From Blasia pusilla (Eukaryota), in the NCBI GenBank assembly GCA_050084515.1, contig CM114271.1, forward strand, positions 18,848,001-18,912,000: 64,000 nucleotides of DNA. Direction: 5' to 3'. Position 1 is the first letter of the stretch. Every line of letters starts with the position of its first letter. The position numbers and the translations under genes are program-made. Shown piece after piece: positions 3,001 through 60,600 of this stretch. The notes under the pieces are model-generated. The model was given only the letters and a program-made list of their open reading frames with translations. It did no database searches and was not told where the DNA came from.

Positions 3001-3124
3001 AATAGTCCAAGTAGAATATTTTCCTACAGAGGATATGACAGCTGATGTATTGACAAAGGCATTGTCAAGAGAAAAGCACAACAAATGTGCTCAGAAGATG
3101 GGTCTTATATTAAACTCCAGTTAA
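1..3124 (+). pseudogene. copia pol (PR-IN-RT-RH) with a deletion near nt 55-60 and two compensating frameshifts (~750 and ~875)
   Basis: ORFs 20..760 and 872..3124 are in the same frame; the integrase segment ILADVT...SFW lies in another frame (696..905). Confidence 0.9.
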
Positions 3125-11600: not shown

Positions 11601-12153
11601 GGGGCGGTACGAGCCCAAGTGGTAGCACAAGGGAGATTGCTACAAGGAGCGGCAACGGCGGCGGCGGCGGTCAAGAAGACCCACATTTATAGTCGACTTC
11701 ATGACGGACATCGATTTATCCCCCTAGCCATTGAGATGTACGGGGCAATGGGGGAGAGGTTTGACTCATTCCTTACGGATTGCGCCCATCATCTCCACTC
11801 GAGAAATGGGTTGTCCTTAGCCACTACGATACTTTATTGTAGGCAACGGGTCTCCATAGCTTTGCAGCGCGCCCAGGAAAATGGGCTTCTGCGGCGGGCT
11901 CAGGCGGTTGGAGACGCCAATGTTAGAGGCCCAGTTAGTGGCAGTCATAGTTTTCTAGGTGTAGCTGATATTGTCTCTTCTGTTGGTGATTTTGGTCGTT
12001 AGGGGGGAGGGCCCCCGTCTTTCTCCTCGGAGCCGGTTCCGGCCTCTTGAGGTCTATTTTTTGGGTCTCCATGCCCCCTCTTTTGTATCGTGATGGGTTT
12101 CCCATCCTTTTTCTACATATATAATTTATTTTTCATTCACTTTTAATAATATA
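8676..12153 (+). mobile_element. CRE-like (RLE-type) non-LTR retrotransposon, inactive, with a 14-bp target-site duplication
   Basis: Single frame 9126-12002 broken by stops at 10125, 10146, 10155 and 11109. RT motifs GIRPIAIGEVLLRL, QVDVENAFNSVSR, GTRQGDPLG, LAND (for xADD). CCHC knuckle, HD, RADL/D/K and FIPLAIExxG endonuclease motifs. CTTTTAATAATATA at 8662-8675 and 12140-12153. Confidence 0.9.
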
Positions 12154-14424: not shown

Positions 14425-14709
14425 ACATTATCTCGAACTTACTTTTAATCTCAAAACTATCATATGGAAATCTTCTAAAAAATTTCTTATGCATTTTTCC
14501 ACCCAAATTTTCTCCCTACATTTTCAAAGAAATTAACAATTTTTTTCTAGATGAGATGGGGCATTAACTCCAAATTTTTATTGTTATCAAAGATAGAGAT
14601 TAAGGATGTCAAAGTCTCTATAATTGCCATTTAAAAAAATAAAATCCAAATTAAGTTATACAAAAGAAAATTTGTTAAAATTTTGAAAACTAATTGTGTG
14701 AGATTTTAT

Positions 14710-15200
14710 CGTGCGCATACACATCGCTACACAACATACATCGTTGTCATCAAACACACACACAAACACGCACGATCCCATGCTAACTCATGACATCCAA
14801 ACAACGAGACAAGAAGTACCAAAATATCTCTAATAAAATAAGATCCAATCTCTCTCACAACACCATAGTTCTCACATGTGTGCACTCTCACATGTCTCTC
14901 CCAATGTCAAACCAAATCCACTCTCCTAATGAGAGGCTTGGGTTACACACACAAGGCAAGCAAGACCATAGTTTTGTCGCCTCATGCCAAGAGGTTCAAC
15001 AAAAGAAGAGAACGAGCTCTCAAGCTTTCTCTCCTTGAGGTATACCCCTCCCCTCTCCCAAGCTCTCTCCATGGTAACCTATGCTCCCAAGTCACCTCCT
15101 TGGCACTTGACCTCATGTAGGGGGTTAAGGGCCACTTACCAAAAATAGAAATTCAATCATATACTCAAAATGGTACTTACCTAAAATAGCAATTTCCTCA
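14710..15200. repeat. Dispersed repeat, probably LTR-derived; similar to 40120-40245 and 39095-39960
   Basis: Shared blocks ATCGCTACACAACATACAT, GTACCAAAATATCTC and ATGCCAAGAGGTTC. Confidence 0.6.
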
Positions 15201-15204
15201 ATAA

Positions 15205-18103: not shown

Positions 18104-18780
18104 AAAACCATTCTAATGGAATGAGCGAGGAATTATATAGGATTCCAAGTGAAGTCAGTTTGAGATGATCGATCCGTGTCCTTTTGTCAATCTCAACTCT
18201 TGGTTTTCATAACTGATTGAGGAGTGGCTCGGATGATTTTGACATATGCAATTTTGATCTAATCCGCAATATCTTTTCCTGACACAGATCTTGAATCTGT
18301 GACGTCCAAATTTGAATTTTGAAATGGATGCGAGTATTAGGTTAAGTAACGTAGATGTGCTGACATGGATCTAATCTGGTTTGCTAGTCAAACATCAAGT
18401 TTGTCATGAATGACAAGTATAAGTAGCAACGTTTTATGAGATAATTTTTTTGCTATCGATCTCTCTACACCGGAGGTGCAAAGTGCTTGCTTTGCAAGTG
18501 AGGAAAGAATGTGAGCGCCCGGTTTTTGATCTTTTGTAGGTCGACGCAGAAATACAATCGTGAGGTTCTTTTTTCCTCTCCTTCCGAATGCACCACTTCT
18601 GTTGTTGTTGATATGGTCTACGGTGGAGCTCAATAGGAGTTCATTCTGATGTCAATTGCGGCAAGATAGAAAATGCCTCTAAGGGGGTTTCAGATACTAT
18701 GACTTCCAAGCCTAAAGGAAGATCGTTTGTCAAGGTTTAGGGTAGAGAACGACATCTTTACCATGCTTGATTCAAAGTGT

Positions 18781-19029: not shown

Positions 19030-20880
19030 TCGTTCTCATTTCTAGCACTGGAGGGAACAGTTCCATCGGTTTGATTCAGAAACTTTAGTTCTAAATGCCC
19101 TCATTTAGGGCTCCCTTATCATTTATGGAACCAAAATGGTAGTTTCGATTGATCCTCCTTCTCATTTCAAGAACTGGATCTTTACTTCCAATGGTGGGCA
19201 GTAAGGAAAGAGGCCGGTGATTTGATTTGGGAACTACAATTCCAAATGCCCCCGTTCGGGCTTAGGGTTAGTGTCAAGAACTGGAACCTGAGTTCCGATT
19301 GATCCTCCTTTTCATTTCGAGAACTGGATCTCTATTCTAATAGCGAGGAATCCGAGAAGGAGGTCCACAATCTCATTTGGGAACTACAATTCCGAAAGCA
19401 GCCGTTCGGGCTCAGTTGTCGATCTGGAATGAAAACATGAGTTCCAATTCATCCTCCTTCTCATTTGGAGAATTGGAACTAGAGTTCCGATGGTGAGGTA
19501 GTAAAGAACAAGGCCAGAGATTTGATCTAGGAGTTCTGAAAGCCCTCGTTTAGATGGGGACTCCCGTCTCTACACCCAGAACCTGAGTTCCGATTGATCC
19601 TTCTTCTCACTTTGATGGTGAGGCAGTAAGGAAAGAGGCCGGAAATTTGATTTGGGAACTACAGTTCCAAGAACCCTGGTTGAGGTAGGGACTCGCGTCT
19701 CTGGAACCGGAACCTGAGTTCCGATTGATCCTCCTTCTCATTTCGAGAACTGGAACTAGAGTTCCGATGGTGAGGTAGTAAGGAAAGAGGACGGTGATTT
19801 GATTTGGGAACTAAAGTCTTGAGAGCCCTGGTTTAGGTAGGGACTCCCGTCTCTGGAACTAAAACTTGAGTTCCGATTACTCTTCCTTCTAATTTCGAGA
19901 ACTGGATATAGAGTTCTGATCATGAGGAAGCGGGGAAGGAGGACGGGGAACTCATTTGGGAACTTAAGAGATGGACTCTCGTCTATGGAACCAGAACTTG
20001 AATTCTGATTCATCCTCCTTCTCATTTTGAGAAGTGGATCTCTCCGATGGTGTGGAAATCGGGAAGGAGGCCCTCAATATCAACTTGTGAAGTACAGCTC
20101 CGAACGCGCCCGTTCGGGCTAAATTGTCGTATTAGGAGCCTAAGTTCTGATTGATCTTGCTTCTCATTTGGAGAATGGGATCTCTAGTGCCGATAACGAG
20201 AAATCTAATAAGGAGGCCCGTGATCTCATTTGGGAACTACATTTCCGAAAGAAGCCGTATCCTAAACCCTAAACCCTAAACCCGTTCGGGCACAATTGTC
20301 GAGGCTGGAACCGGAACTTGAGTTCCAATTCATCCTCCTTTTTTTGAGAAGTAGATCTAGAGTTCCAATGGTGAGGTAGCAAGGGAAGAGGTCAAAATTT
20401 TCATTTGGAAACTATTGTTCCAAAAGCAGCGATTTGGGCTCAGTTGTCCTCTCTAGAACCGGAACCTGAGTTCCGATTGATCCTCCTTCTCAATTCGAGA
20501 ATTGGAACTAGAGTTCCGATGGTGAGGTAGTAAGAAAGCGGTTGGAAATTTGATTCGGGAACTACACTTCCGAAAGCAGCGGTTCGGGCCGGATGTCCTC
20601 TCTGAAACCGGAACGTGAGTTCCAATTGATCCTCCTTCTCATTTCGAGAACTAGAACTAGAGTTTTGATGGTAAGGTAGTAAGGAAATTGGATGGCGATT
20701 TGATTTGGGAACTACAGTTCCGAAAGCCCTTATTTAGGTGGGTGCTCACGTCTCTGGAACCAAAACTTGAGTCCCGATTGATCATCCTTATGATTTTGAG
20801 AACTGGATGATTCTAGAGTTCCGATGGTGAGGTAGGAAGGAAAGAGGCCAGCGATTTGATTTGGGAACTACAATTCCCAA
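19030..20880. repeat. Tandem array, ~12 units of ~150 bp
   Basis: TTCCGATTGATCCTCCTTCTCATTT recurs at ~19143, 19293, 19442, 19588, 19719, 19871, 20003, 20145, 20323, 20471, 20621 and 20772; several GGAAC-N4-GTTCC palindromes per unit. Confidence 0.92.
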
Positions 20881-21079
20881 ATTCTGACGCTTGGGTTTCT
20901 TCCTGACAGTGTATTACTTTCATTAAAGGGATTGGCTCGTGCCGTTTGGATAACAGAAATAACGGTTAGTATGTTAAGATCTACACCTGGGAACCACACA
21001 GATTATGATCTCCCATGTTCATTCAAGTATGTACTCGAGATCCTATTGCAAGCCGTCAAAAGCCTAACTTGGTAATGGT

Positions 21080-26849: not shown

Positions 26850-29800
26850 TGGTATGCCTTCAAGATTTCTCTAGCATACTTTTGCTGAGAGAGAAAAATA
26901 GAATTTGACTGTTGCCAAATCTCCAGCCCTATAAAGTACAACAAAAGACCTAAATCTAATATTTCAACACTCCCTTCATTTCCTCTATTTTCTTACTGTG
27001 GTCTCTTATGATGATCAGATCATCCACATACATGACTATCAACATATACATCCCATCTTCGCAAAACACATACAAATTTGCTTCTGACGGACTCTTGATG
27101 AAACCAATCTCTCGGAAGAATGTATCTATTCGGTGATACCATACCTTTGGGGCTTGCTTCAACCCATACAATGCTTGATGAAGTAAACACACTTTCTCTT
27201 ATGATCCTGGTGTTTCAAAACCTGGTGGTTGAGATACATACACCTCCTCCTTGAGACTCCTATTCAGAAAGGCAGACTTCACATCGTATTGGTATGCAGG
27301 CCAATGTCTTGTTCCTGCCACCGCTAGAAAAATTTGAATGGTTGTCATCCTTGCAGTAGGAGCAAAAGTCTCATAGTAGTCAAAACCTTTGATTTGTGAA
27401 CACCCTTGTGCAACCAACCTCACTTTGAATTTATCCAATGTACCGTCCGGCTTGTACTTAGTGTTTTACACCCACTTGGTGCATATTATCTTCCTGTTCT
27501 TTGGCTTCTCAACCAAAGTCCAAGTTTCATTTCTCTGAATAGCGTCCATCTCCATCTGCATGGCCTCTCTCCATTAAGGATGAGCAAGGGCCTCATCCAA
27601 GCATGATGGTTGTTCCACCTTCAAGACCTCTATCATCAAGGCCATGTTGACGAGATGTATTGAAGCTCTATTGTGCTCCTGTAGTCTCTTGGATCTCCTT
27701 GGATGTGTAACAACTTCATCAGTTGCTGAATCCTTGCCATGCAAGAGCTTCTTTATCCACTTAGGGTATGATGACCGTAGTGGAAGAGCAGGCTCCTCTT
27801 TGTAATCATCACCAAATTCTTCTTCTTGATGATCTAGTGTAAACATTGGTGGTGTGCTCTGGTGGGTTATCTCTTCGTTTAATGATAATATGGACGGACC
27901 ATTGATATTCGCCACTTGACGAGGTTGTTCTTGGAACACCACATCACGACTCACAAGCATCTTCTTTGCCTCACGACACCATAGACGATAAGCTTTAGAC
28001 TCATCACTATATCCCATAAAGATGCACTTCCTGCTCTTGGACTCTAGCTTGGTCCTGGATGCTTCAGGAATATGTACAAAGCACTCACTACCAAAAGTCT
28101 CAAAATGTTGGACTGATGGTACCTTACCTCAGTATGATTGATGAGGAGTCATGCCTTGCACTAACTTGGTAGCACTTCTATTTAGAATGTAAACGGTAGT
28201 ATTAACAGCTTCAGCCCAAAATCCTTCTATCAAACCTTTTGCTTTCATCATACATCTTGCCATCTCCACCACTAAATGGTTTCGATGCTTAACAACTCCA
28301 TTTTGTTATGGTGTATGTGCCGTGGTTAACTGTCGCTTGATTCCATGCTCCCCCAAATATTTGTTGAATTTTGTTAATAAAAATTCTCCTCCTCGATCGG
28401 TGCGAAGCTTCTATACCTTCTTTCCTATCTCATTCTCAACCAGCTTATGCCATACTTGAAATTTTCCAAGAGCACTTGCCTTATCACGAAGGAAATACAC
28501 CCACATCTTCCTACTATAATCGTCGACAACTAAAAAGAAGTACGAAGAACCACCTAATGCCACTGTTCTCATTTTACCATAGAGGTTAGCATGAATCAGC
28601 TCTAGAGGAGCCTTTGCTCTATTGCTGGACTCTTGTGGAAATGGTTGTCGGTGTTGCTTGCCCATCATACAAGCTTCACATGTATCTGACACTCCAAAAA
28701 TTGTTGTTAAATCAACAACCATGCCAGATTTATGCATATGACTTAGTAAGGGAAAGCTTAGGTGACCAAATCTTTCATGTCACAACTTATTGCTACTAAG
28801 ATCTATACCTACACTTGTCGTGAAAGCATACAACTTGTAGATATTTCCACGTCGTATATCTTCCGCCGACTACTTTTCCATTGACATCCTCAATGACTGC
28901 TCTAGTTTTCTTGAAACGAACTTCTAGGTCACGATCACATAATACTGAAATTGAAATCAAATTCCACTCTGGTACGTATAGTACATCAGTTAACTTCTTT
29001 TCATCTCCTTTTTTTGAGACTAAAGAAATTGTGCCTTTTCCTTCTATAGGGCACTTTGCATTCTTCCCAAAAATAACAATGATGGGCTCCTGTAGAGGTT
29101 GTAAGGAGCTATACCAATCCTTATGATTGGTCATATGCCTAGATGCTCCACTATCGAGCACCCATGCATCTTCACTCTTTGACTTAGTGGAATGATCTGC
29201 CTGTGTGCAAAACTCTTTGATTGCTATCCAAGCATCTACTTCATGTTCTCCTAGTTCTACAGAATTTACAGACTCCTTCTTAGATCTTAAACAACCGTTC
29301 TTCTCATCATGACTCCTCTTTCTACAATCTTTGATAAGATGACCTAGCTTACCACACTAAAAGCATTTGAAGCCTTTCCTTGGAAATTTCTTCATGACAT
29401 TTGAATTTTAATCCTGATTTCTACCTCTCTGTATGCTGGCAATAAATGCTACATCACTTCCCTCTCTTACTTTGAAGCGCATTTCCTCTTCTACCAACAT
29501 TGCACTAAATTGCTCAAAAGTAAGCAGCGTGGGTCTTACTTGAGTATTCAATGCAGTGACCAAACTGTCATACCTTGGAGGAAAAATCCTTATGCACCGA
29601 TGTGCCAAATCTTTGCTAGAGTTTGAAATTCCTACAGACACCATCTGATCTTGAAGATTCTTGATCCTTGTCAAAAATTGCTCCGCCCTTTCTCCTTCTG
29701 AAAATTTCTCGGACTTAAGTAGATTCTCCAGTCAGGGTAAAGACTCGGATTCAGAATCTCCTTAAGTCCGAGAATCTGAATCCGAGTCTCATTCCTCGTT

Positions 29801-37400: not shown

Positions 37401-37947
37401 TGAGGTTGCACAAAAATAGACAAGTTAATCAATGCATGGGAGAAACATATCCAGACAAGTCTCGACATGTCAAACAAGTTTCCCGCCCAGATTTTTGGCA
37501 TCTCAGTGGCCCGTGCGGGCTCGGGAAGCGAGAACGAGTGCGAGCTTATCAGGGCAAGATCAAACGGGTGTGTGGGATATGAGCCCTTGCTTGGCCCTCA
37601 TTGGGTGGGCTTAGGAGCCCACCCTATCCGACCCTTAGCCTACCTACCCGAACTTGAGCTTGGGCCTATCCTATCCAAGCTTGAGCCCTCCATGCGGGCT
37701 CTATTCAAGCCTAGCCACTAGTTTTGAGTCCACCCAACAGCGGCCCAACCCGCCCTAGGGACTGTTGCGGGTCATGTGCGTGCTTAATGCGGGCTACAAA
37801 ACGGCTACATATTGACCAAACCCCGGTCTACGCTACAAGCAAGGCGGGCATGGGGGCGGGCTGCGGGTACCCAAGCCCGCATGGACATGTTTGTTCTAGG
37901 GACAGATATAAGTCTACGGACACGGACTTTGTCCATGTGCAACATTG
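37401..37947. mobile_element. hAT-type MITE, degraded TIRs
   Basis: TGAGGTTGCAC...GTGCAACATTG; flanks TAGTGAAT/CCTTGAAT. Confidence 0.75.
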
Positions 37948-39240
37948 CCTTGAATCAAGGTCTAAGGCTGTGATCCAAAATTTGATTAATCGGACTTGGA
38001 TTGATTTCAAACCCTAACACCAACCTCAGAACCCTGCCCTTGCTTCAATTGCCTTGGTTCCTAAGGTGGGATTCAGGTTCCAAATGCACTTGGAGATCCT
38101 CACCCTTATATATAGTTATAGAAATACTTGACCCCATGTTCTTAAAAAATATCCCTCTTAGGCCGCTCCTAGCTTTATGGCCCATAATCCAAATTATACT
38201 TTTGATAGCCTTAAGCATATTTCAAGAGGTATTCTTGTGTATTTCTCTAGATCAATTAAGCGATGCACTTGACTCATCACAAGCTTTCCCACGCCACCTT
38301 TCTTATCATAAATACATCTTGGTTCTACTTACCATGACTTCAAATATCAAGAACCTCCAAACATTCAATCATGTTCCAAGATAGGTTGTAGCCTCCTTAG
38401 GGACCAACTCTTGTGGGACTTTAACTCTTCTCAAGTTCCATACTATTTTTCGTCATGCCCTTTGGACCACAACCATTATCATTTGAGATGCCCATTAAGG
38501 CTCTCCTCTTGCTTCTATAACTCATCCCTTATTCATAAGACTCCAATGCGTTTCCATCATAGTATGAACCCACTAAATTTGTGATATTGTGTGTTAGCAC
38601 GTGTTTGATTATGAGTGTTGCACCACAATATAACATCAACTAGGAATAATTTTTATGATCAATTTGATCCTAGTATATGTATTTGAAGATATTTATATGT
38701 TGAATTTACTTCATACTATTTTTAGAATGAGAAAAAAGGCCATATATGGTGAATATATATATGGAATTCTTCACATCATGAAAATTTATTTTCCAAATAT
38801 TTTTCGAAGAAGAAAAAGAGATAAATCTCTCTTTTAAAGGAGAAAAAAAGATTTTCTCAATATACTTAAATTATTAAAAAAACTTCTTTGTATGAATAAA
38901 AAAAACTTATTTCTTTCATTTTTATATGCGAAGATGAGTGTTATTAATTGTGACTTCTTAGATAATTGAATCATGTTTATGGTGCAACCACATATGCACA
39001 AAGAAGAAAAATATGATATATTTCATGATTTGGATTGGTAAGGTATGAATGACAAATCAGATTACCATATACATCTTAGTACCAAGATGATCATGTACCA
39101 AAATATCTCCAAAATATCATAAGAGATAAGAGATAAGATATAAGAGACTTGGGATACTCTTAAGACCAGAAGGACCATATTATATCATCTGATGCCAAGA
39201 GGTTCTACAAAGAGAGGAGCTCCAAAGCTCAATCTCTCTA

Positions 39241-39279
<39 letters not shown>

Positions 39280-39648
39280 TACATATCAAGCGGTAGGTGA
39301 TCAAGAGGTTAGCTAAACAAACATAAGGTCCTCTTGAAGAGGTCTTGGGTTCAACTCTCCCCTTGGACAATCGGGGGCGGTCTCAACCCCAAGGCAACGG
39401 TGTCCCCTACCTAGGGCATGGATGGTCCATGTTCGAGAGAGAGAACGCCTTGTGTGCCTTAACTATACTCCCGCATTGAAATCCTAGATAAAATTCCAAG
39501 CCTTCACAAAGAAAAACTAAAAACAAAAACCAAATCTCCTCAGTGAGAACCCCAAATGTAGATGTGAAGGTGTCCGTCGGATGGGATGTCAATTTCACAT
39601 ATGTGGAAGGGGTCCCATAAGCCATATTGGCTTCCCGTGGACTAAAAA

Positions 39649-39803
<155 letters not shown>

Positions 39804-40245
39804 GGTATCTCCTTTTCTTCTTCCAAGCTCTCTACACGATAACTCATGCTTGCAGATTATCTCCTTGGATCTTGATCTGACATAGGGGATCAAGGGGCAC
39901 CTTCCAAAGTAAAAAAGTAAACTATGCTCAAAGTAAGAACTTACTCAAAAAAGTAAGTTTTTAAATATAGCTCTAATTGAGCTAAAAAAATGCAAAACTT
40001 GCTCTCTTAGATTATCCAAGGCCTCAAAAAGTCATCCTCAACCTCTTGAGGTTGTTCTTTGATCTTTTCAAAGTCATCATATGCATACTCATCAATCCAT
40101 TCTAAAAGACGTGATACTTATCATCCGTATAGATATCGCTACACAACATACATTACTGTCACTAACTACAAACATAAACATAAGATAACATACTCACTCA
40201 TGACATCTTAATAATGAGATGATTGTGTAGTACCAAAGTATCTCC

Positions 40246-43200
40246 AATTGTCCCACTAGGTGGTGGCATAATTAGGTTCCTCTAACCCCATATAGTCATA
40301 TATTCCTACATTCCATGGCACACATCTCTAAGATGCTAATAGCAAAAAGATCGAGGGGTCATATGGTCCCATTGTTCGTTGCCTTCTTATCATCCACGTC
40401 ACTAATGCAAATTTAGATCTATGACTTCATAATAACTATTGTATGTATATATGGGCACCAGATGTTCATTGAGTAATTACTAGAGGACACCTCTCACTAT
40501 TTTCCTTGAGGATTTATAGTAACAAGTGGCATCATACATGTCCTATGCCATCCTCTTGAATATCCATAATAGACTAGTATAGTAGATGCATCGTAGATAG
40601 ATCCATACAATATACAATATAAGCTTGTAGGAACTTGCTAAGCTCAGATCAAATATACCATCAATGTTAGGAAAGCAACATAGCGCACAGTTAGGCATAT
40701 GATCCTTCCAAACCGTACCATTACGTCCCTCCAATGAGAGAACATACGATGATAAAAACTCACGCACTCTCAAGATAGTGCGTCATTTGTAGCATCCAAT
40801 ATCATAAGTGTTGTGTGGTGCAAGTAGACATAATCTCCTTGATTCAACCTTTGAATAGTCAATCCATAACCACCTCCTCACATAGTCACATATCTTAATG
40901 TATCCCAATGTTGTACAATAGCAAAGTTCTCAAACATCATGGGCATAACTCTCTAAACAAACTCAGCCCTATGAGAGCATGCTTGCATCTTTATATACAT
41001 AAAGATCATCGAGGTTCAACACCTCATCAATATCATAACAAATGGTTGTAGTAAATTAGACTCTTGACTATTAAGCAGCAAATAAGATGAGAAGGAATCT
41101 AAGGATGTCTACTTGTTGAATATGTATTGCATCATCAACCATGGAAATTGTAGGTCCCAATCTCCTAGGTGACCTCTCAACAAGTCATACTTGCGTAAAT
41201 CACTCTTCCCTATTTGGACAACTCTCTCCATTGGTCCATCCCAATTTTGCATGTGGACAAAGTTTGTGTTTGCGGACATGTCCATGTTTGTTGACTTATA
41301 TCTATCATATGGAAGGACTTGTTCGTATAAGCCCCATCTTCCCCTTCTTTCGCATCCCCCTTACTTGCCTCCATATTTTGCACTTTCCCGTTTCTTCCTT
41401 CCTCCACCTCCACTCCCTTCCTCTTATTGCTCGACGGTCCCTACCTTACTTCCGCCATAAGCTATAAGTATAGGCCCTTGCCATCCATGTCCATGGACAT
41501 GTCCATATTTTTCCGTCCATGTTCATCTTAGGGACAACCATGGTCCATCCATCTTAGAATGATCTTGCGAAGTAAAGTAGTGGCTAATCAACGCTTGATC
41601 AAAAAAGGCTTGGAACTCCCCATGAAAATCTATACCCTAGTTTTTCAACACCTCTTTTGGAGCGCCATAGAGATTCATTACTTGAGATAGGAATGCAAAA
41701 GCTACTACCTCACTTGCTTTGTTAGACGATGCAACCAACTCTATCCACTTTGAGAAGTACTCGACCATCACCAAAACGTAACAACCATGATGCTCTATCA
41801 AAGGTAAAGGCCTTGCAAAATCCAAACTCTAGCTATAGTCTAAACCCATAATTAGTAGTGGATGCAAGTGTGAAGTCAAAGCAATGAACAACTCAATCAT
41901 ACATCTGACAACAAACTTCTCTACATCATTCTGCATTCCTTGCCATCAATATTGTATCTAGAGCAAGATGTATGTTTGCTTCACTCCATAGTGTATTAGT
42001 GTCCCAACTCCTTGTGTACATATTGCACCAATCATGATCTCTACAAGGGATGAGGAACTACTCATACTCCACCATCCTTCCAAACTCATAAAATGTGTGT
42101 CCCCTCGCATTGAAAAGAGTCTACCTCATTGTAGGGTCTGATCCTCCTATCTAGCACCCACTATGCTAGCAACATTGCCAATACGTACATTCTCCAAGAC
42201 TACCTCGTCTTATTGGATATCTTGACCATATGTCACCTTCTCACCAGTTTTTGGATCTAAGGATCTCCATCAAACCTTGCCATTGAAGTAACACCCTCTG
42301 GCTCTCCTTAGTTGACAAACCCAAACATGTTGATGCGTGCCAATCAAGAACCATCTCCTCATCACTCTCTCCATCCTAATAAGATCCACTTGCATCTCAA
42401 TAGCTTGAGCATGGATTACGACTCAACACGTATGTATCATGATTGAGCATCTCAACTTGATGTACCAACCATAAATCATATATACTCCTAAAACAAGAAA
42501 GCCCACCTAGCAAACTTCCATGTAATCTTGTCAAACTTCTTCAACCACTTCAATGGTTGACGATCAATAATGATGGTAAGAAGGTTGCCAAATAAGTAAT
42601 TCCTGAAATGCGCAATAATCCACACTGAAAGAAATTAAGAAATCAACCTTATACAAGCTATAATTTGTCTCTACAATTTCATTTGAATGACCAACAAAAG
42701 CCATCACAAACTGTGAATCCTCATCATCACACTAGGTGAGCACCACTCCAAGCCCAACCTACTCCAACATATATATAAGTTGAAATGAGTCCCCTTGATT
42801 GATATTCTTAGTATAGATGTAGACATCAATCTATCCTTATGCGATTGAAATGCTCTTTCCTACTCATTCCCCTAGTGCCACTCATGATCCATCTTGATCA
42901 GCAAGGTTAGGAGCTAGACAGTCAAATTGAAACCCTAGACATATCGTCAATAGAAATTTTCCAAAACCATGAATGCAAAATGAACTCATATTTGTAGGGC
43001 ATGGAATGCATGAAATAGCCTCTACCTTTGTTAGTTGAATACCAAGGCTATTTGGATATATTGTATGATCGAAGTACTCAATCTGGTCATAGAAGAATTT
43101 GCACTTGCCTGAATGTAGCTTCAGCCCATGTAACTGCAATCCTCGAAAAATCTCCTCAATATCTCACTCATGCTCCTAAATTGCGGTATTGAAGACTACA

Positions 43201-43490
43201 ATATCATCAATGTAAAACCTACCACAATCCATACTTTCCAAGATCCTATCCATAACCATATGAAACTCATTAGTACGTTCTTCAACCCAAATGGTAAGGA
43301 TTGCCACAAGTAAAAAAAATCCTTCCCGTAAGGATTAATTCCCAAACATGCCATCTTCTACCTATCCTCTAGTTTGATAGGCAATTGATGGTATCACTTG
43401 AAGATCTAAAGAATTGAAGACATTTGCGTATCCTATAGCTGACATCAAATATCTCCTCAAAAGCGGGTATGGCATATCTATCAAACTTCA
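40246..43490 (-). mobile_element. Heavily decayed Ty3/gypsy RT-RH-IN-PHD, related to the 15-18 kb element; hAT MITE in the integrase (~41226-41550)
   Basis: GLKLHSGKCKFFYDQIEY..HTIYP parallels GLKLHPGKCKFLYNQIEYLGHTIYP of copy 1; integrase DFARPLP...EYFSKWIE; QGDYVYL...ILRV...LEG...KDH..NCA; PHD remnant at 40485-40616. Confidence 0.85.
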
Positions 43491-43529
43491 TGTATGGCGA
43501 TAAATATGCCCCTTTATTGGTTTATGACC

Positions 43530-45555
43530 ATCACATTCTCTGAACAGAGCAATAGTTCCATTTGGCAAACCTGCATATAAAAATTCTTCGTCTTCTATCT
43601 AAAAATCGTGATTGGCCATAATAGTCTCAATCTCTCGTGTCTCCTTCCTTTACCTTGTATCCCTCCTATTGAAATACTCTCTAAAATCATTTGTAACAAC
43701 TATGGCATGGAATCCCTCCTTCAATTCTAAGACACGTCCCAATATTAAAAAATTTGTTGCTTAGTGTTCGTGTATTAGTAGGAAGCAATAATCATCTCTT
43801 CATTGGGTTGGTTTCCATGAATTTTACCATCATCCAAGTTCCTATCTTCACAAATACTACCATCTCATGACCTTGTGTGAAATTCCTATCCACCTCATGC
43901 CACTTGTGACTTATCCCATAGTTCGTATAGGAAATCAAGAGAATGTGATACACATTCACTCCAAAGTATGTCAGGAAATTTTGCTTTAATAATTTTCCCT
44001 ATTGCTGGCTCATTGCTAGCATTTTTTGTCACAAGTTGCACCATATTCTTTGGACCTATTTGCATGATAGTCCTTCCTATGTGGCCTACCAACCATTGAG
44101 CCATTTGGGATTCCTCCTTCTTATCTACAAATTTTATTATAACCTCACCTTGAGGATATGAGACTATAATGTTCACTAAAGACTCACTCCTCACATTGGT
44201 CCAAGCATCCATGATGATCATGGCCCCCAAATAAAAATTATCCAATACGGCATCAACCATTTCCCTCACCTTCCCTATATGTTTCATAAGTAGATCAGTA
44301 CGCAACGCATTGTAACCAGGACTTGAATAACACTTTACCTTTGTTGTTGCCAATATTTTTTCTTGAAAGAATCTTGCCGTAATACGTTGAATGATATCCC
44401 ATATTAGTAGAAATACTTTGCCCAAGTATCATTTGAAACTTCTATTTCTTGGAAGTTGAAAGAATCCCTCACATCAACTTGCTTCTTTTAGGCGCTACTA
44501 GTCGTCTCACTTGGCTTAACTATCCCTCAATATTGGTCAAGACTGTCACTCGGTGTCATATCCGCAACCCTATCAACATTGGATAAAAAAAAACACTTTT
44601 TATTTTCTCCTCAGAACCCGATTGGAATGGTATTATCTCCTCCACTTCACTGAAGGGTCTCTCTTCCCTTCTCTATCCATTCGGAGATCCCATTGCACAA
44701 TAGAAGGGACCTTCACACATAATTTGGCATGATGGCCATCTTAACTCCTCTCCTTTTTCTTTTGTTCCTCTCGTGTAAAATGCTCCAGCATCTGCCTACT
44801 ATGATATGTTTTCATTGATTAAGAAAAATACTTACACTACTATTTGTTTGATGTTCCATCTTCTACATGTACTTCTTTCCAATGTTCCTTCACAATCTGT
44901 TGGAGTTCTCTAGCTTTGGTTATGACTACAAGTGAATACCCTTCCCACCCAAAAAATATTTGGTCACTTTGCAACAATTTTACACGCACAAGAATTAGAT
45001 ATCTTGACCTACGAAATAAATGAAAATTACACCATATAGTGTCCATTAATGCCTATAGCAACCTTAGAACACTCACTATAAACAAGAAAGGCCGATATGC
45101 TAGCCTAGATAATTGAGATAACTTAAATCATCAAGGTTATCTAATTGTAAAATATATTCTCACTTATCAAGTTCACCTAGACAAAAGAGTAGAGAGAGGG
45201 AGACATGGAGAGACACTCACCTAGACAGCATGGCCCAAGCCTACGCTTGCAACGAGGCCGTATGTCTCGAGGCTAGGCTTGCTCCTTAGCCCAGGTAGGC
45301 CTAGGGTTTGAGCTTAGGCCTACATCTAGCGTGCATGGCCCACACGTAAGCATGCCTTGTTCGTGCTTAAGCATGTATCCTACCCGCAATAGGGCGCGGG
45401 TCCACACCCTACAGGCGGGGTTTTGTGGTTGGCATGCACTAGGCCCACATGGGCAAGGAGCCTATCTTGGGCCCATATCCCGCACGCATGTTGCTCCCTA
45501 TCCTGCACCCTTCATCGGATCACACACTCATTCTCGCATCTAGAGCCTACGCGGG
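43530..45555 (-). mobile_element. hAT transposase relic (BED-finger remnant and DUF659-like core) with GC-rich subterminal region
   Basis: IIMDAWTN...LVNII...VQLVTKNASN...WSECVSHSLD (43895..44425); W...CKY...LEHF...C at ~44715-44885. Confidence 0.8.
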
Positions 45556-45559
45556 CAAC

Positions 45560-46300
45560 TCAAACACCAAAAAGACCCAGCTTGAAGCACCATTCTTCAT
45601 CAGAGGAGTCGAATTCCTCTCTGCCTTTCCAGATCCTACAAAGGGGAAGCATTGGTTTTTTAGTAGATGCTCTTCTACCTTATGCAAAGATGCACTCTTC
45701 TGACCCTTACAAAGATTACAAGGACACCTTACACAAATTTGCCTATCCCTCCTTGCCGTGGCCTGCTCTCGATGCCATAGCTTAAGGTCATGTCTTGCAA
45801 CTCTCTCAACATTGTTGAGGGGTTGTCTAACCTTGTGGTTTGGATGGCTCATTATGGTTTCTCCTGAATATGGAAAATTTGATGTCATAAAGCCTAACAC
45901 GACACCAATTCAGAGTTCAGATCTTTCCCATTCATCTCTCAGCTAACACATAACTAAAACACCATAACTTAATCAATATTTTCATACTTGCACATAATGC
46001 TTCAATTGTAAGAGCACCCGCATGATTAGTCTTCTTCTTGTTGAAACAATGTATATCTTCAACGCTCTTTTACAACAAGCCACTTATAGAGCAGCATGTC
46101 AACATCTTTCCTAACCAATTCATATCTCAAAAGCAACATATGGTACAATTTCTAACTCTATCCATGCATGATCCTATTCACCATCCCATTCAACTCTCAA
46201 ATATAGTGCAGTGGTGACTTGTTGCATTAAGCATTCAAACAATAGAACTTGTTTGAATTCTTTCTATATATATCTATCCAAATTGAATGTGATAATGCAG
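45560..46300 (-). mobile_element. CACTA/EnSpm transposase N-terminal fragment
   Basis: VRCPCNLCKG...KVEEHLLKN matches the CPCxxC...HL transposase-associated domain pattern; extent approximate. Confidence 0.6.
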
Positions 46301-46775: not shown

Positions 46776-47082
<307 letters not shown>

Positions 47083-48129: not shown

Positions 48130-50980
48130 AGATCAGCCCCAGACATTCATGCTTGCTATGGAAGCTAAAATTTCCTCTCTTCATGAAAATAAAACCTGGA
48201 TCCGCGTACCCAATCCTAAAGAGCTTAAGTCATCCACACATACTAACAACATAGTCTCTTGTAAATGTGTATTCAAGATCAAATGGTCTTCTTTAGAAAG
48301 AAGGAATTGATTACAAATAAACATATTCTCCTCTCATACATATCATTTCTCTCACCACGGTTCTTTCCATTGTTGTTGTTTGCAACGTTGAATTACATCA
48401 AATGGACACCAAACTGCTTTTCTTCAGGGTGGTCTACAAGAAATCATATACAGGCATGAGCCTCTAGGTTTTGAGGTAACTGATCAAGGTCCAACTGGTA
48501 TGTCTTTTGTGTCTGTGGCTCTTTATGGAATAAAGCAATCCTCCTCAGCTTGGGATCAAAAGATGGATGGATACTCAACCAGTGCACGTTTTCTCAAAAG
48601 TACTCGTGATCCTTTTTTGTATCACAAATAGTCTTCTACATATCAATTACTCATAGTTGCTATATATGTAGATGGTCTTGCTATTCTAGCAGATAATCTC
48701 ATTCAGCTACAACAATTCAAAACTCATGTTCAATCTAAATTTAAAATGATTGATATGGGAGAGCTTCATTACTTGTTAGGGCTTCAGGTGGTAAGAGACC
48801 GGGCATGTCACAAGATTTCTTTGCATCAACAAAGATATATATGTGAACAACTTGTACAATTAAGTATGGTAGATTGTCATACAGTCTCTACCCCTTCTGT
48901 GCCTGGGACAACAATGTCCAAGTCCACATCTGCTCCTACTAGTGATGATCTTGCTCATTTTCAGCAATATCCACATGCCAGATAGTTGGAAGTCTTATGT
49001 ATGCTTCAACCATGACTTGCCTTGACATCTCTTTCAGTGTGGGCCAGTTATGTAAATACATGTCCAACTATTCCATTGAGCATTGCCAAGTTGCAATGCA
49101 TGTGCTCAGGTATTTGAAGGGAACTTCCAATACGGGCTAGATCTTTGATGGTTCCACCCATGATTTTGCTCTTCAGGGTTTGTTCTTTTCATGGCAGGAG
49201 GTGCCGTACATTGGGCCTCGAGGAAGCAGACAATCAGTACACAGTCTACTACAGAAGAAGAATATGTAGCCCTCAATGCGGCTACCAAAGAATACTTTGG
49301 ATTCAACATTTACTTGTTGAGATTGGTTTTCCACAACTAACTCCAACAATTTTCTCTATGAAGACAATCAATCTGCAATTCAACTATTAAATCATTTTTG
49401 CTCAAATTCCAAAATCCGACATTTGGAGCTAAAATTATTCTTTATATCTGAACACATTCAACAAAAAAGTATTCGTCTATAGGAATATAGATCCTCAATT
49501 CAAGCTGTTGATGTTTAACTAAAACTCTATCTAAAGACCAACATTATTCTTTACTCCCAATATCAGGATGTAGGAAATATAACTAAGTGGGAGATACGAC
49601 ACTTTTTAAGTAGAAAATTGCATGTTTTTCCAACCAGATCATCCTAGCTTAGTGGGAGTGTTAGATAAATACATTTTAGATAAAGGTATCACGATTAAAA
49701 CCATTCAGTCCTAAAGGAGCTATCTATTGCTGGTACTCTTACTGGTCCTTCATCTAACTAAGACACTTGGCCACTTGACTAAAAGATCCACTTGGCCACT
49801 TGGCAGTGTATCTCACGTCCTACCTTTAGTGGTTCCCCACCTAGTCACTTGGCCACTTGGCTAAAAGAGAGAAGAGAGATACTGTACTCATTAAGTAGTG
49901 TCTGTCATAGCCTTGCGACTATAGACCCCCCGCCCTAGTTGGACAGTGCTTGAGATAGGATGGGTGTAGAGAGCATGGTTGCACAAAAATGGGCAAGTCC
50001 TTCCTTAGGACGGACATGGACGGACAAGTCTGGACATGGGTTCCAAGAGGTGGGACCTACACTTTTAGTCCATGATGGAAGGCAAGGGAATGATGAGAGG
50101 AGCAATGAGGGAGGAGGGAGTGGAGGTGGAGGGAGGTAAAAAATGGGGAAGTATGGAACACAAAGGCAAGTAAGGGGTATGAGAAAGAAGGGAAAGGCGG
50201 GGCCCATACGGACAAGTCCTTCCATAGGACGGACATAAGTCCACGGACACGGACTTTGTCCACATGTAACCTTGGTAGAGAGAGGAACAAGTGAAGAAGA
50301 TACCATATGAGAGGAGGGAGACACTCTGATATAGTGTGAGTGTTGACCAAACAACGTGTTGGTGCAAAGCTTCCACGTGTCAACCAAGAAACGCTTCACC
50401 ACACCATCTGCTTTACCTCATTGGGATCCCCAATAGACATTACTGACTAGTGCATCAGCTTTGGCAAATGAATCAAGGCTACCTATTATGTTGAACAATT
50501 CTGGTGTTACTAGCTTAGCAATATCAACATACGCTCATGGCTCTATGTGTTGTGAATTTTGCGCAGGAGACCAAGTAATGAAAAGTCTTTCAGAGAGAGA
50601 GAGACTGTACTCATTAAGCAGTGCCTATCGTAGCCTTGCGACCATAGACCTTGCACCCTGGTTGGACGGTGCTTGAGACTAGGATGGGTGTAGATAGAGG
50701 AGCAAGTGAAGAAGGTACCATATGAGAGGAGGGAGACACTCTCATATAGTGTGAGTGTTGACCAAACAATATGTTCGTGCGGAACTTCTAGGAGTCAACC
50801 AATAATCTAGTTCACTTGATTGGGATCCCCAATAGACATTACTTACCAATGCAACAGCTTTGGGCAATGAATCAAGGCTACTGAATGTGTTGAAAAAATT
50901 TGGTGTTACCAACTTAGCAATATCAACATATGCTCATGGCTCTATGTGTTATGAATTTTGTGCATGAGACCAAGTAAGGA
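48130..50980 (+). mobile_element. Old copia RT-RH relic; PPT at 49651-49658, LTR-like region from 49659 with a ~390-bp tandem duplication (right end uncertain)
   Basis: AMEAKISSLHENKTW, CKCVFKIK, IYVDGL, MIDMGELHYLLGLQV; AGTGGGAG|TGTTAGA; 49866-50578 duplicated at 50593-50978. Confidence 0.75.
49974..50274. mobile_element. hAT-type MITE with a perfect 8-bp TSD
   Basis: CATGGTTGCAC...ATGTAACCTTG flanked by GTAGAGAG at 49966-49973 and 50275-50282; empty site in the duplicate at ~50690. Confidence 0.92.
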
Positions 50981-51494
50981 CTAGAGGTTTGATCCCCATC
51001 ATCACACAAGGCGCAAGAGTTTAGTTGTGTTCCCATCCTGCTTTTCTTATGGTTTGAGAGGATTATCCCCGTCCTATACTTGAACTTGATTTGAGTTCCC
51101 AAGCAAGGGGTTCCCCACAGATAGTTCTTCAGTTCTACCTTCTCCGGATATACTTCAAGAGAGAGAGGTCACACATTTTCATGGCTTCCTATGTGTTGTT
51201 CTCTTGTGAGCGATTGCACATTGCTTTGGTAATGGTATCCACAAATGATTTCTCATCTTGCTCCCACAATTCAGGCCCTATTGGGAGCTCGGTTGCTTGC
51301 ACAATCTCTTGAGCTTTTTTCTTCCAAGATTTAGCCTACTTTACGGGTCTTCTTTGCGTCCAAGTTTTCCCCATCAGCTCTTTAGGATAGCAATAGGGGT
51401 CCATTTTCTCCAATTGCCTCCGCCATTTCAACTTGGAAATGTCACATCTACTCCAGCGGTTCCACTCTTCTCATCTCACACCAACTCTAGCTGA

Positions 51495-51678
<184 letters not shown>

Positions 51679-52289
51679 CATTTTTGAATCTAAGAGCTGC
51701 ACTTCATTCTAGTGCGTGTGCACCACCGAAGGTGAGTGTAGAGGAGATGAAAAGGTACAACACAGAATGGTTAGAAATTATCCTTCCAATGAATTAATTA
51801 TAAGCATGAGAGGTGAGGAGAGCTGGTAGTAACTTACAATGTGAACAGGGATTGCAGCGTCCAAGCATGACGATGCTACTTGGAATATGGAACCTATAGC
51901 AGAATACACAATTGCACAAAATAAGAAAAACTCTTCTCAAACTTTAAAACACAATAATCCAACTAGAGAGATGCTATTGACTCACCATATTTGTAGCAAA
52001 GAATGTGACTGGTATTTTTTATCTAAAAGTTTTCACCGAACTGCCATTCATGCAAGCTAAAACTGAAAATCCACACCTTCACTCAACCCAAAAATGCATC
52101 ACTCATCTAGTGTCCCAACATTGTCTCACACTCCTATAGTATATGTTCTAGCAGCATTGATCACAAAAACATCACGCACGGACCCACAGGGCTTGGAGGA
52201 CTTAGCTCAAATTTCCCAAATTTCCACTAGTTAGGTGAGTAAGGACGCGAAGGGCTTGGAGCATGTATTATTTATCTAATAATTATGAT

Positions 52290-57637: not shown

Positions 57638-60600
57638 TCACAGACGCGATATTTGAAGAGGAGTGTAGTCTGACTGCTCCTCGGCCATGACGGGCTGCTG
57701 GAACAGCTCCAAGTCTCGATTTTGCTCGAAAAACCGTCTACAACACTCCTCTGCTGCCATCACTCCAGTCGCGAAAGCTCCATGCACGGTACCGGGGAAT
57801 CTTTGACTCGTGGCCTCACCTGCCCAGAAAAGGTTGTCCACAGGAGTACGCAGTCGCTCATAGAGATCATGAGGCTTTCCAACAGCATCGTAGCTGTAAC
57901 AGCCTAACGAGCTAGGATCCGTGCCCCAATGTGAGACTAGGTAATGAATCTGCAAACCACGGTCACCCACGTTCCAAAGGCGGTCAGCATCGGATTGTTG
58001 ACTTTCCACGTTCTGAGTTGTTATGGTCGGCCTACTACTTCTTCTACTGACGCCATACTTGTGTTCATTTTTTCTTGTTGGAGGGAAACTACTTCTGTGA
58101 AAATACTGCAGTCCGACAAAGCAAAGACCTTTTATGTCGGAGATCTATCCGGAAGAGCCCAATTAAGATATAATGTTGACTTTGACGGTCCCTTTCATTA
58201 TTGCGGTGCATTTGAGAAAATTATCTGCACACCCATCTTTTTACTCACTATTTTCACTCGAATGGTCCTTGCCTTGTTCTTCACAACCCCTCGCTTCAAA
58301 GATGCGCCACATATGGAATGTATGTAAGAGATGTCTTGGATAGTCTACAAATATGCAACTTGGAGAATAGTTAACTGCAGCACACGTCTTAAGCCGTCAA
58401 GAAGGATCCCTTTCGAAGGAGCTTTCACGAGTCTTTCACTAGAGAGCGACTCGCAAAACAGTTCGGTTGTGAAGGTGTGAAAGGCTCGAAAGAATCTCTC
58501 CAGAGAAGCCTTTCCTTCTTTTCCTTTTTTGGAGGGGGGGAAGGGGGAAGAATCCAGACAGGTCGAGACAAGGCGGCTCGTCTTGGAGAAGTGAGTCCGA
58601 TGAGACAACATACCGGTTCGGCTGCGTTGGGAAGTATCCTCTTGAGCTGCATCACAGCGAAGCTAGCAGCTGCTTCATCCGAGAGTTTCTCGATGTCATT
58701 CGCAAGTCGCCCTGCCGGCATATATACAAGGACAGGGTGACCTGTAGCCTTGCGCAGGTTCAAGAAATAACTGCAGCCGTAGGACGTAGGAGCAACGACT
58801 CCTAAGAACTCCACGTTTGGCCAACACACTCTGTCAAAGAACAAAGCGATCTTGTTCTCGTTCCCGAAGCCCAAATCTCGTATGGATGTTTCTTTCCAGT
58901 CTGGGAGTCGCGGCTCGAACCGGATTATGTCAGCTTTGAGAACCCCCAATGGCACAGCCATAACTGCTGCGTCAGCGTCAAAAACGCTTCCGTCCTCCGT
59001 GATAGCTCTTACACCTTGAACCCGTCTCATGACTTTCCGTACCCTGTCCAATACGTACAATATAATACCAGTCAGAACAGAACGAGGGAGAGATAAAAGG
59101 TAATTACTCAATAGTCTGAGTACCACTACTCTTCGTGGGTACAATTGATGTTCGCCACAGAACCGGTGGAAGATACCTTGCACCCAAGTAGCTGACCGTG
59201 GTTTTCTGAACCATTTACCAGGAAGGAAACGGGGTTATTCTAGAAGATTCACCTCGTATTCAGACGGATGTCGAGACCTTCAGATAGAGCAACTATCACA
59301 GGCTCGTAGCCTCTCACCATCAATCCATGACCACCTTGCAGTACTTCTTCCTGGAAAACCGAACCGACATTCTAACATTAGGAATCCTAAGGGTTGGATA
59401 TAGGAAATCCTGCACTAGATAGTTTCCTTCGATTATACTGGCGCAATTTGATTAAGACTCGAGCTTTCTGGTTCCGCAATGCTCGATGATGCAAACGTAG
59501 ATTCTGAGACTGGAAACAACCAACAATAACTCTCATACCTCATCCCAGCTTTGAACCGAGATATTGTCGGCGTCGGCTGCAAACCATCCTTCCATTCTGC
59601 ATAGGTACCACTGCAAAACCTTATGCCGTAGTCCCTCTTGCCTGAAAAAGGATGTGAAAGTTTAGCTTTCAGAGTGAAGAATAATTTTACGTTTCTGGTG
59701 ACACCCAACTCTGATAAATCTGACAAGCCCACAGACAGAAACCACATCTCACCTCAAGTCTGGTCTTCTCTCCAGAACTGCAGAAAAGGCTTTCAACACT
59801 GATATATCAGATGAGATCTCGTCTCGAATTTTCTTCGTCTGTAGGCATCAAATAAGAGACTTGATTAACGCCAACGAAACTAACATGGGACACGAGCTAT
59901 ATTGGGAAAGAATGCAAGTTACTTTTCCAAAAACTCGTTGCAAGCCATTTTCCACGAAACCGTAAGCAACAGAGATCAGAACACAACCCTCCTGACATTA
60001 TGTCACTAACGAGCGAATGATTTTTTGGTACAATTTCAAACGCTGCCCTATTATATCTCTTCTGAATTAGTAATTGGAGGTTGCATGCTGACACGCAACA
60101 GTGCGCGGGGGCACGGACAGCTCGGACTCGGAGTCATAAGGGGTGGTTGAGTTTGGGAAAATCAACTCACTTCCTCGAGTAGGGCCTCAAACGCTAGTCC
60201 GACTTCGGTGACCAAATGTTGTGGTACTTTATTGCCTTCCATATCAAACAGCGCGTAACTGCATACATGTGTTGCACCAACAAATGAGCACGGGCACAAC
60301 GTGACAAACGAGCTCAGACTAGCCCGATTCACTTCGTGTTCAGGGTCTGACATAGAACAGAAAATGCAGAGACGATCCTGTTGCCGTGAAGCTTCACGAT
60401 ACGCAAGCTTCGGATGAGTCTATCATTTTACCACAAGTGTCGGCGTGTGAACACCCCATCGAGGTAGGGGCCCAGCTCTGCAGCACGAAATCGTGTCCTT
60501 ACAGCGGGAACAGACACGAGCCAGTCATCCGCTATCATCTCACAGCAATCGAAGAGTCTCCGACATCAGATCACAAAAGTCTTCTTCGTTACAGGAGGTT

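Follow-up and report, generated by a model that had tools for sequence, protein, structure and literature searches.

In a 64,000-nucleotide stretch of the Blasia pusilla genome (assembly GCA_050084515.1, contig CM114271.1, positions 18,848,001 to 18,912,000; hereafter the window, numbered from its first letter) we find a dead Ty3/gypsy retrotransposon whose integrase ends in the fossil of a PHD finger. The element falls in a green-lineage clade of PHD-bearing gypsy elements, many members of which also carry a DNA methyltransferase (DNMT) domain resembling DNMT3, and we read the family present here as having had the order protease (PR), DNMT, reverse transcriptase (RT), RNase H (RH), integrase (IN) and PHD. 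We put the probability of this reading at about 75%. Two fragments in the window bear on it: copy 1, which carries the DNMT and lies on the plus strand, and copy 2, which carries the PHD remnant and lies on the minus strand. Their surroundings are plant-like DNA with 43.4% G+C and zero N, dense in transposon remnants.

A PHD finger fossil at the end of a gypsy integrase

Positions 40616-40500 of the minus strand hold what is left of a PHD finger, still where the ancestral element had it, at the very end of a Ty3/gypsy integrase. The piece reads CILYGSIYDASTILVYYGYSRGWHRTCMMPLVTINPQGK and is followed by stops at 40499-40497 and 40496-40494, so that the whole feature extends over 40494-40616. 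Three of the eight zinc ligands of the C4HC3 pattern remain, namely the Cys of ligand 1 (40616-40614), the His of ligand 5 (40547-40545) and the Cys of ligand 6 (40538-40536). Ligands 2, 3 and 4 are tyrosine, each encoded by TAT (40607-40605, 40571-40569 and 40562-40560). The two stops stand at the position of the tryptophan and directly after it, and ligands 7 and 8, which lie behind them, are unreadable in frame. A Cys-Pro pair at 40489-40484 is found in the next frame only; it may or may not be ligand 7, an identity made doubtful by its spacing past the tryptophan position, which is 4 nucleotides (nt) too long. The first-pass annotation, made from the letters of the window, had transcribed this reading exactly, with the caveat that its Cys-Pro sits in the shifted frame. 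Its description of the piece as a C4HC3 motif with three Cys-to-Tyr changes holds for the first six ligands, but not for the last two, which are lost. Measured by the full Cys4-His-Cys3 set, the piece no longer qualifies as a PHD finger: it is a remnant and not a working finger.

Descent from a finger is indicated by position and by colinear alignment with the intact fingers of relatives. A family profile covering the C-terminal half of the integrase plus the PHD, built from 123 relatives and 307 positions long, matches 41699-40503 with 107 bits (E-value 3.4e-34) over its positions 2-297, running through the finger and bearing out the earlier placement of the finger after the integrase tail. 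A phmmer search with the single-frame read-through of 43361-40470 (stops replaced by X) against 1.84 billion representative proteins returned 12,854 matches at E <= 0.001, 63 of them at E <= 1e-30. The integrase C-terminus and final PHD of the top match, P0001 (E 8e-81), align to query residues 707-955, which include the piece, and the last 50 residues of P0001 are recognised as PF00628 (E 2e-9). Relatives typically end in ..CAPCHLPN.D.., C..C, a spacer and LLCD.C..GWH..CL.PPL...P.G.W.CP.C, which the window follows residue by residue except at the lost ligands. A word-indexed search of longer proteins with the integrase C-terminus and finger as query gave 186 candidates, not one of which reached E <= 0.001; decay has left the query without words in common with its relatives, and the result is no evidence of their absence.

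Could the likeness be due to chance, or the piece be a fragment of a host PHD gene adjoining the element? In keeping with such an origin, Pfam finds no PF00628 match here with the E-value limit relaxed to 10, where relatives match at E 1e-5 to 4e-13, and only the three ligands are left; in a six-frame scan of the window with a PHD-only profile from the same relatives the piece is the best match, yet a weak one (1.7 bits, E 0.086), all others scoring below 0 bits. On the isolated 45-residue piece, however, the same profile scores 13.5 bits, a value reached by none of 2000 composition-preserving shuffles (maximum 7.4). The piece also stands at the family spacing after the integrase, inside a single 107-bit alignment, and retains the family-typical non-ligand residues GWH..C and P..G, and other matches of the PHD-only profile stay below 0 bits. 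Chance or a host fragment is therefore highly improbable in our view. A weak GRAM match on the piece (E 0.04-0.07) was taken as chance.

The remainder of copy 2 has the layout of a gypsy pol gene. On the minus strand RT (43456-42636), RH (to 42482) and IN (41999-41544) succeed one another in the Ty3/gypsy order. The 5'-truncated RT and the RNase H together occupy 42482-43508, as delimited by the family RT-RH profile (78.7 and 47.1 bits) and by alignment with copy 1; with stops read as X, Pfam recognises PF00078 at 43070-43262 and PF17917 at 42481-42625. The zinc-binding (H2C2) and catalytic core domains of the integrase (41544-41999) match the family profile with 122 bits (E 6e-39), and Pfam places them at 41897-41996 (PF17921, E 9.6e-5) and 41567-41789 (PF00665, E 2.6e-5), both under the Pfam cut-offs. 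The integrase C-terminal region, which includes GDYVYL and has stops inside, lies at 40794-41240 on the same strand; residues 812-1060 of P0001 align by tblastn to 41240-40500 with 35% identity (E 4e-29). It is followed at 40633-40791 by the final integrase block ahead of the finger (..ILRVREF..NCALCCFPNIDG..; 21.3 bits, E 4.5e-8, profile positions 201-253), in a frame that differs from that of the finger. Stops and two frame changes mark the tail between 41240 and 40633.

The place held by the chromodomain in chromoviruses is occupied in copy 2 by the PHD remnant, and a scan of 39001-46000 in its three minus frames gave no match to chromodomain PF00385 at E up to 1. The gap that separates RNase H from integrase measures only 483 nt and has no profile match to a DNMT; copy 2 is therefore not of the type, described below, that carries the DNMT in that gap. 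The fragment is cut inside the RT at about 43508, where its likeness to copy 1 stops. No direct repeat pair that could represent long terminal repeats (LTRs) flanks 40480-43560. The segment 40118-40248 was ruled out as an LTR of copy 2, its match at 14706-14834 being in the wrong relative orientation.

An unrelated short repeat, with no strand assigned, interrupts the copy 2 integrase at 41271-41518, where it appears as an insertion in the profile alignment; by blastn it is 72.6% identical over 259 nt to a second copy at 50008-50264. Copies of this repeat were noted at 37875-37947, 41271-41518 and 50008-50274, and contigs of one sequencing run (X4, see below) reach very high depth at 41299-41520. 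Directly beyond the truncated 5' end of copy 2 lies a fragment of a hAT-type transposase on the minus strand (43895-44428; DUF659, E 8e-22), and on the same strand a weak match to the Transposase-associated domain, under the cut-off, occurs at about 45650-45750 (E 0.003).

Domain order among the relatives

The retrieved proteins were classed with profiles for DNMT, RT-RH, integrase and PHD, and shares were taken over the best 150 phmmer matches. Among these a finger follows the integrase in 112, a DNMT is present in 68 and both occur in 59. A finger some 190 residues past the integrase core is the rule in the clade, and PF00628 is found after the integrase in 19 of the 21 relatives scanned with Pfam. 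Intact relatives keep all the Cys and His ligands; had they lacked them, the first-pass annotation would have been contradicted by its own account.

Two arrangements of the methyltransferase are seen. The commoner of them has its DNMT in the gap that separates RNase H from integrase, as in P0008 (RT 79-242, RH 332-436, DNMT 644-747, IN 977-1143, PHD 1363-1407). The metagenome loci fetched with P0001 are of this type only, the contig of P0001 itself being absent among them; 10 of the 21 read RT-RH, DNMT, IN and PHD in one open frame. In the second arrangement, shared by copy 1, the DNMT precedes the RT, and the order DNMT, RT-RH, IN, PHD is found in 16 cluster representatives. P0152 displays it together with a protease in a single open frame: PR 663-711, DNMT 953-1137, RT 1443-1596, RH, IN 1925-2090 and PHD 2300-2344. 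The P0275 cluster comprises six full-length proteins, almost identical and 2703-2706 residues long, encoded on contigs of about 10-11 kb, a degree of likeness which suggests recently active copies.

Set against each other, the methyltransferases of the two arrangements reach a median score of 137-161 bits, compared with 33 bits against DNMT3A. Being far closer mutually than to DNMT3A, they appear to represent one module common to the clade that was moved or exchanged within it. Named sources of the clade are Haematococcus lacustris, Tetrabaena socialis, Parachlorella kessleri, the EukProt entry Tetstr1, Closterium sp. and Marchantia polymorpha; the Closterium sp. member has the DNMT upstream of the RT and no finger. 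Judged from sequence, the clade ranges over green algae, at least one liverwort and the genome studied here.

Three relatives continue for about 250-300 residues past the PHD finger: P0157 (after residue 1466), P0109 (after 327) and P0086 (after 381). By eye these tails resemble S-adenosylmethionine (SAM)-dependent methyltransferases (DPW.G.G near the start, SPW or APDP later), and Pfam finds no match in them. The P0157 pol may accordingly combine a DNMT, a PHD finger and a third, methyltransferase-like module, and the three tails invite comparison with the adenine methyltransferases of EpiLTRs (bioRxiv 10.64898/2026.05.21.726589).

Kinship of the two copies

Copy 1 shares one stop-rich plus-strand frame among its DNMT, its RT and the start of its RNase H. 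The C5 cytosine methyltransferase domain, with motif IV as GWPCQGQS and many stops, lies at 15827-16671 (PF00145 E 5e-6, 26.5 bits where the cut-off is 22; 70.8 and 92.6 bits with the DNMT profile of the family), and the RT with the RNase H start at 17030-18109 (PF00078 E 5e-18; family profile 215 bits). Compared with solved structures, this DNMT reaches only the bacterial enzyme 3g7u (E 0.0034). Copy 1 carries the C5 methyltransferase in pol that characterises Gypsy-DNMT3 elements; the corresponding site of copy 2 is missing, the fragment being cut in the RT. Copy 1 breaks off near 18109, a satellite of about 150 nt follows, and the family profiles find no integrase or finger downstream.

The satellite takes the form of tandem arrays at 19141-20881 on the plus strand, with 2.3 to 3.8 copies each and 77-82% matches, beginning about 1 kb past the break. 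In Marchantia polymorpha the gene Mp_6g11220 (P0159 / P0388, MARPO_0016s0162) aligns to copy 1 at window positions 15201-17344 with 42-70% identity. Annotated as a 'hypothetical protein' of 1333 amino acids, it is a gene model over a relative of copy 1; Pfam finds nothing in it and the family DNMT profile matches.

The two copies overlap in the RT only. They are 75.6% identical over 735 nt by blastn (E 2e-142), and a gapped alignment has 556 of 717 nt identical (77.5%), in agreement with the close parallel between the two RTs that had been noticed at the outset. Transitions make up 102 of these 161 differences; the most frequent, read towards copy 2, are C>T (39) and G>A (30), a pattern expected of deamination after insertion. 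Both copies are dead: stops, frameshifts and changes of the transition type fill them, and neither has a function today.

In an RT-RNase H tree (45 rows, 399 columns; IQ-TREE, LG+C20, quick search) copies 1 and 2 are sisters with a Shimodaira-Hasegawa-like approximate likelihood ratio test (SH-aLRT) support of 94, and FastTree recovers the same pair among 173 rows with support 96. Both copies belong to a group of 10 rows (SH-aLRT 92) that also holds P0152, P0153, P0001, P0002 and a clade of P0015, P0020, P0154 and P0155. The rows whose DNMT stands downstream of RNase H are all gathered in a clade of their own (100% support), outside of which both copies fall. At a deeper level a clade with 98% support takes in every row that has a PHD or a DNMT, and P0181 and P0170, listed with a chromodomain or neighbouring such rows, stand outside it. 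The PHD-bearing and the DNMT-bearing copy thus fall together in the RT tree, where placement in different clades would have spoken against a common family. An integrase tree (41 rows, 189 columns) joins copy 2 with P0002, P0153, P0152 and P0001 (93). With moderate support, these trees place both copies in the sub-group of PHD-gypsy elements that has the DNMT upstream of the RT, the P0152 type, and for this reason we regard PR-DNMT-RT-RH-IN-PHD as the most likely order of the family in this genome.

A competing explanation accepts the finger as real and derives copy 2 from a sister family with PHD only, which never had a DNMT or had lost it, so that writer and reader were not paired in this genome. 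It draws on the truncation of copy 2 at about 43508, which makes the upstream part unreadable, on the modest identity of the two copies, on the 53 of the best 150 matches that have a PHD without a detected DNMT (many of them N-terminally cut gene models), and on the nearest matches P0001 and P0002, in whose available part there is no DNMT. The RT group argues otherwise: all six members with a known N-terminal part (P0152, P0153, P0015, P0020, P0154 and P0155) have a DNMT upstream of the RT, and P0002 is sister to the DNMT-bearing P0153 with 100% support. The excess of C>T and G>A changes towards copy 2, moreover, resembles decay after insertion. We consider a PHD-only sister family unlikely, and infer that both domains were once united in a single element of this genome.

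Several further points weigh against the PR-DNMT-RT-RH-IN-PHD reading. As the first-pass annotation stated, neither window copy has both PHD and DNMT, copy 1 being without integrase and finger and copy 2 without DNMT. Of the order it proposed, the part from DNMT to PHD is matched by the 16 representatives and the whole by P0152; the protease is undetected in the window, where a profile of five relatives, sought upstream of the copy 1 DNMT, has no match at E <= 0.01. An identity of 77.5% over a 717-nt overlap is borderline for one family. P0001 and P0002 start just before the RT, downstream of where a DNMT of this arrangement would lie. The supports of 94 and 92 come from quick searches and lie under the threshold of 95, copy 2 forms a long branch (1.78) of odd composition in the RT tree, and the integrase tree is poorly resolved, with high support on 6 of its 38 branches. 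In the same sub-group the finger is missing from P0154, P0155, P0015 and the Closterium protein P0368, and P0153 has a variant finger only; its absence from P0154, P0155 and P0015 indicates that the finger can be lost.

Sequencing runs indicate the abundance of the family. In four public DNA runs of one organism (X1-X4) we counted contigs with at least 80% likeness to copy 2, and thousands match at this level (7407 in X1), mostly on RT and integrase; a few match the copy 2 locus almost exactly. Their differences are mostly T>C and A>G, that is, other copies have C or G where copy 2 has T or A. To the points against the reading we add that the bin 40411-40521 is almost without contig cover and that the ligand codons are not among the differences listed (40 of 515), so that no intact finger is seen in other copies. 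A contig of X3 (record 17) covers 40402-40571 with one difference and reproduces the assembly there; the source sample of the window may be among these runs, so that the contig need not be independent. Over 40300-43600 run X4 has G>A at 239 places, against 38-50 in the other three runs, as would fit a bisulfite-type or otherwise converted library.

Reader, writer and a possible mechanism

What might such a finger have recognised? The solved structures closest to the P0001 PHD are CHD4 PHD2 (E 8e-16) and the PHD of ATXR5 (E 1.3e-15), followed by PHF12, WSTF, PHF21A, DPF3, KAT6A, AIRE, BAZ2A, KDM5 and UHRF1, with 98 distinct sequences at E <= 0.01. PHF21A, AIRE, CHD4 PHD2, KDM5A PHD1 and UHRF1 read unmodified tails of histone H3. 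In the finger studied here an aromatic residue stands directly before the His and not two residues before it, which we take to be the arrangement of the unmodified-H3 class. Histone H3 unmethylated at lysine 4 (H3K4) is selectively recognised by the PHD of ATXR5 (PMC5499861). The finger of the live element would thus most likely have read H3 unmethylated at K4.

The finger might instead have read another mark (H3K4me3 or H3K9me), bound another protein or DNA, or served the DNMT rather than the choice of target. PHD specificities vary, cnidarian retrotransposons with PYGO-type PHDs that recognise H3K4me being one instance (bioRxiv 10.1101/2021.11.30.470311), and the plant PHD protein ORC1b is also among the matches of the P0001 PHD. 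That the proposed binding is drawn from likeness of sequence counts against it as well. The presence of ATXR5 among the best structural matches, the five readers of unmodified H3 and the aromatic residue before the His favour the unmethylated-H3K4 preference, and we judge a different target to be rather unlikely, if a serious candidate.

The writer is probably of the DNMT3 type: the enzymes closest to the DNMT of P0154, an intact relative, are DNMT3A (E 3e-7) and plant DRM2 (E 8e-7), and retrotransposon DNMTs perform de novo CG methylation (PMC5890265). In a live element the finger would hold the complex of integrase and cDNA on nucleosomes through the H3 tail, most likely in its K4-unmethylated form, and would steer insertion away from active promoters, the role of the chromodomain in chromoviruses being the analogue. 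The DNMT3-like domain could methylate the new copy or its surroundings, and the protease may cut the reader apart from the writer.

More broadly, we tentatively suggest that the combination characterises the clade as a whole, from chlorophytes to the liverwort and the present genome. Its members would unite, in one polyprotein, a writer resembling DNMT3 and, on the integrase, a PHD reader of the class that recognises unmethylated H3K4; the writer would have moved within pol, and some members may add a SAM-methyltransferase-like tail. This generalisation is, in our estimate, somewhat less probable than not.

Other features of the window

The remaining annotated sequence consists largely of other mobile elements. 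A Ty1/copia element at 1-3121 on the plus strand runs off the window start and has frames of 252 and 787 amino acids (GAG-pre-integrase, rve, SH3_retrovirus and RVT_2, the last with E 2e-74); a second Ty1/copia element lies in pieces at 27577-29356 on the minus strand. Three consecutive plus-strand frames of 336, 317 and 296 amino acids at 9117-11999, the first with an RVT_1 match under the cut-off (E 1e-5), look like a non-LTR element (long interspersed nuclear element, LINE), and a related fragment occurs on the other strand at 6893-7306. Two minus-strand frames at 57641-59234 match the flavin amine oxidase domain PF01593 (E 8e-28 and 5e-18) and probably belong as two exons to an amine oxidase gene of the host; no other likely host gene was noticed. 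Long dinucleotide microsatellites occupy 39650-39830 (CT/GA), 46780-47080 (CA/TG) and 51493-51680 (GA).

Comparison with known systems

Retrotransposons that carry their own chromatin tools are informative about how mobile DNA exploits host silencing or hides in it. Targeted insertion is classically illustrated by the chromodomains of integrases, and the discovery of DNMTs in retrotransposons is recent. If the pairing proposed here is true, a DNMT3-like writer coupled to a reader of absent H3K4 methylation would copy the rule by which the host places DNA methylation, and the element would insert where H3K4 is unmethylated and then methylate. The intact relatives, several of them in near-identical multiple copies, are better material for study than the dead copies of the window.

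REM1 of Chlamydomonas, attributed to Perez-Alegre and co-workers in 2005, is reportedly a PHD-bearing retrotransposon.

A close functional parallel is offered by the chromoviruses, Ty3/gypsy elements whose integrase carries a chromodomain at its C-terminal end and which are steered to H3K9-methylated chromatin (Gao et al. 2008, cited in PMC6673714 and bioRxiv 10.1101/2021.11.30.470311). Both systems fuse a reader of histone tails to the C-terminus of a gypsy integrase and presumably tether it to a chromatin state. They differ in the reader, here a PHD and not a chromodomain, and in the likely mark, unmethylated H3K4 in place of H3K9me.

Each half of the combination has its own precedent. KnitGypsy-Dnmt3 of Klebsormidium nitens is a gypsy element with a DNMT3 (de Mendoza et al. 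2018, PMC5890265), a type called streptophyte Gypsy-DNMT3 in bioRxiv 10.64898/2026.05.21.726589. It shares with the elements described here the gypsy LTR body, a methyltransferase in pol, DNMT3-related there and probably so here, and a streptophyte lineage, the DNMT of our intact relative P0154 being nearest to DNMT3A and DRM2. The term PHD is absent from the main text and one supplement of PMC5890265, a comparison made on text and not on its domain-map figure or on sequence. PHD fingers have been reported in retrotransposons, gypsy elements of Chlamydomonas included (PMC6673714; PMC8557442, as 'a common accessory domain'; PMC9940879, Gypsy-7a_cRei), and fusions of PHDs with transposons have been catalogued (bioRxiv 10.1101/2021.11.30.470311). 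The Chlamydomonas elements are likewise green-lineage gypsy elements with a PHD in pol, the named relatives of our copies coming from other chlorophytes. Unlike ours, they are presented in those texts without mention of a DNMT, and the legend in PMC9940879 lists the PHD between RH and INT among its abbreviations, so that the finger may be placed differently.

A chromodomain, an adenine methyltransferase and a DNMT come together in the LTR elements named EpiLTRs (bioRxiv 10.64898/2026.05.21.726589), which resemble the present clade in uniting several epigenetic modules, writers as well as a reader, in a single LTR element. Their reader, however, is a chromodomain, and their DNMT, which has DNMT4 as its sister, is located at the 3' end of pol or together with DAM, whereas here a PHD accompanies a DNMT3-like domain; the available text of that preprint has no mention of a PHD finger. 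A similar coupling exists in host proteins. The ADD domains of DNMT3A and DNMT3L and the PHD-SET protein ATXR5 (PMC5499861) likewise link a PHD-type reader of unmethylated H3K4 to a silencing-type methyltransferase. In the host, reader and writer are parts of the same mature protein, where catalysis is under the control of the reader, whereas in the element they are split by RT, RNase H and integrase.

Our literature search, which did not extend to the figures and PDF supplements of PMC5890265, found no paper on the pairing of PHD and DNMT in a gypsy element. Both components have more precedent than the first-pass annotation assumed: gypsy elements with DNMT3 (PMC5890265) and gypsy elements with PHD (PMC9940879, PMC8557442) have each been published already. 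What the present data add to these known systems is the pairing of the two, and its probable presence in a plant-like genome.

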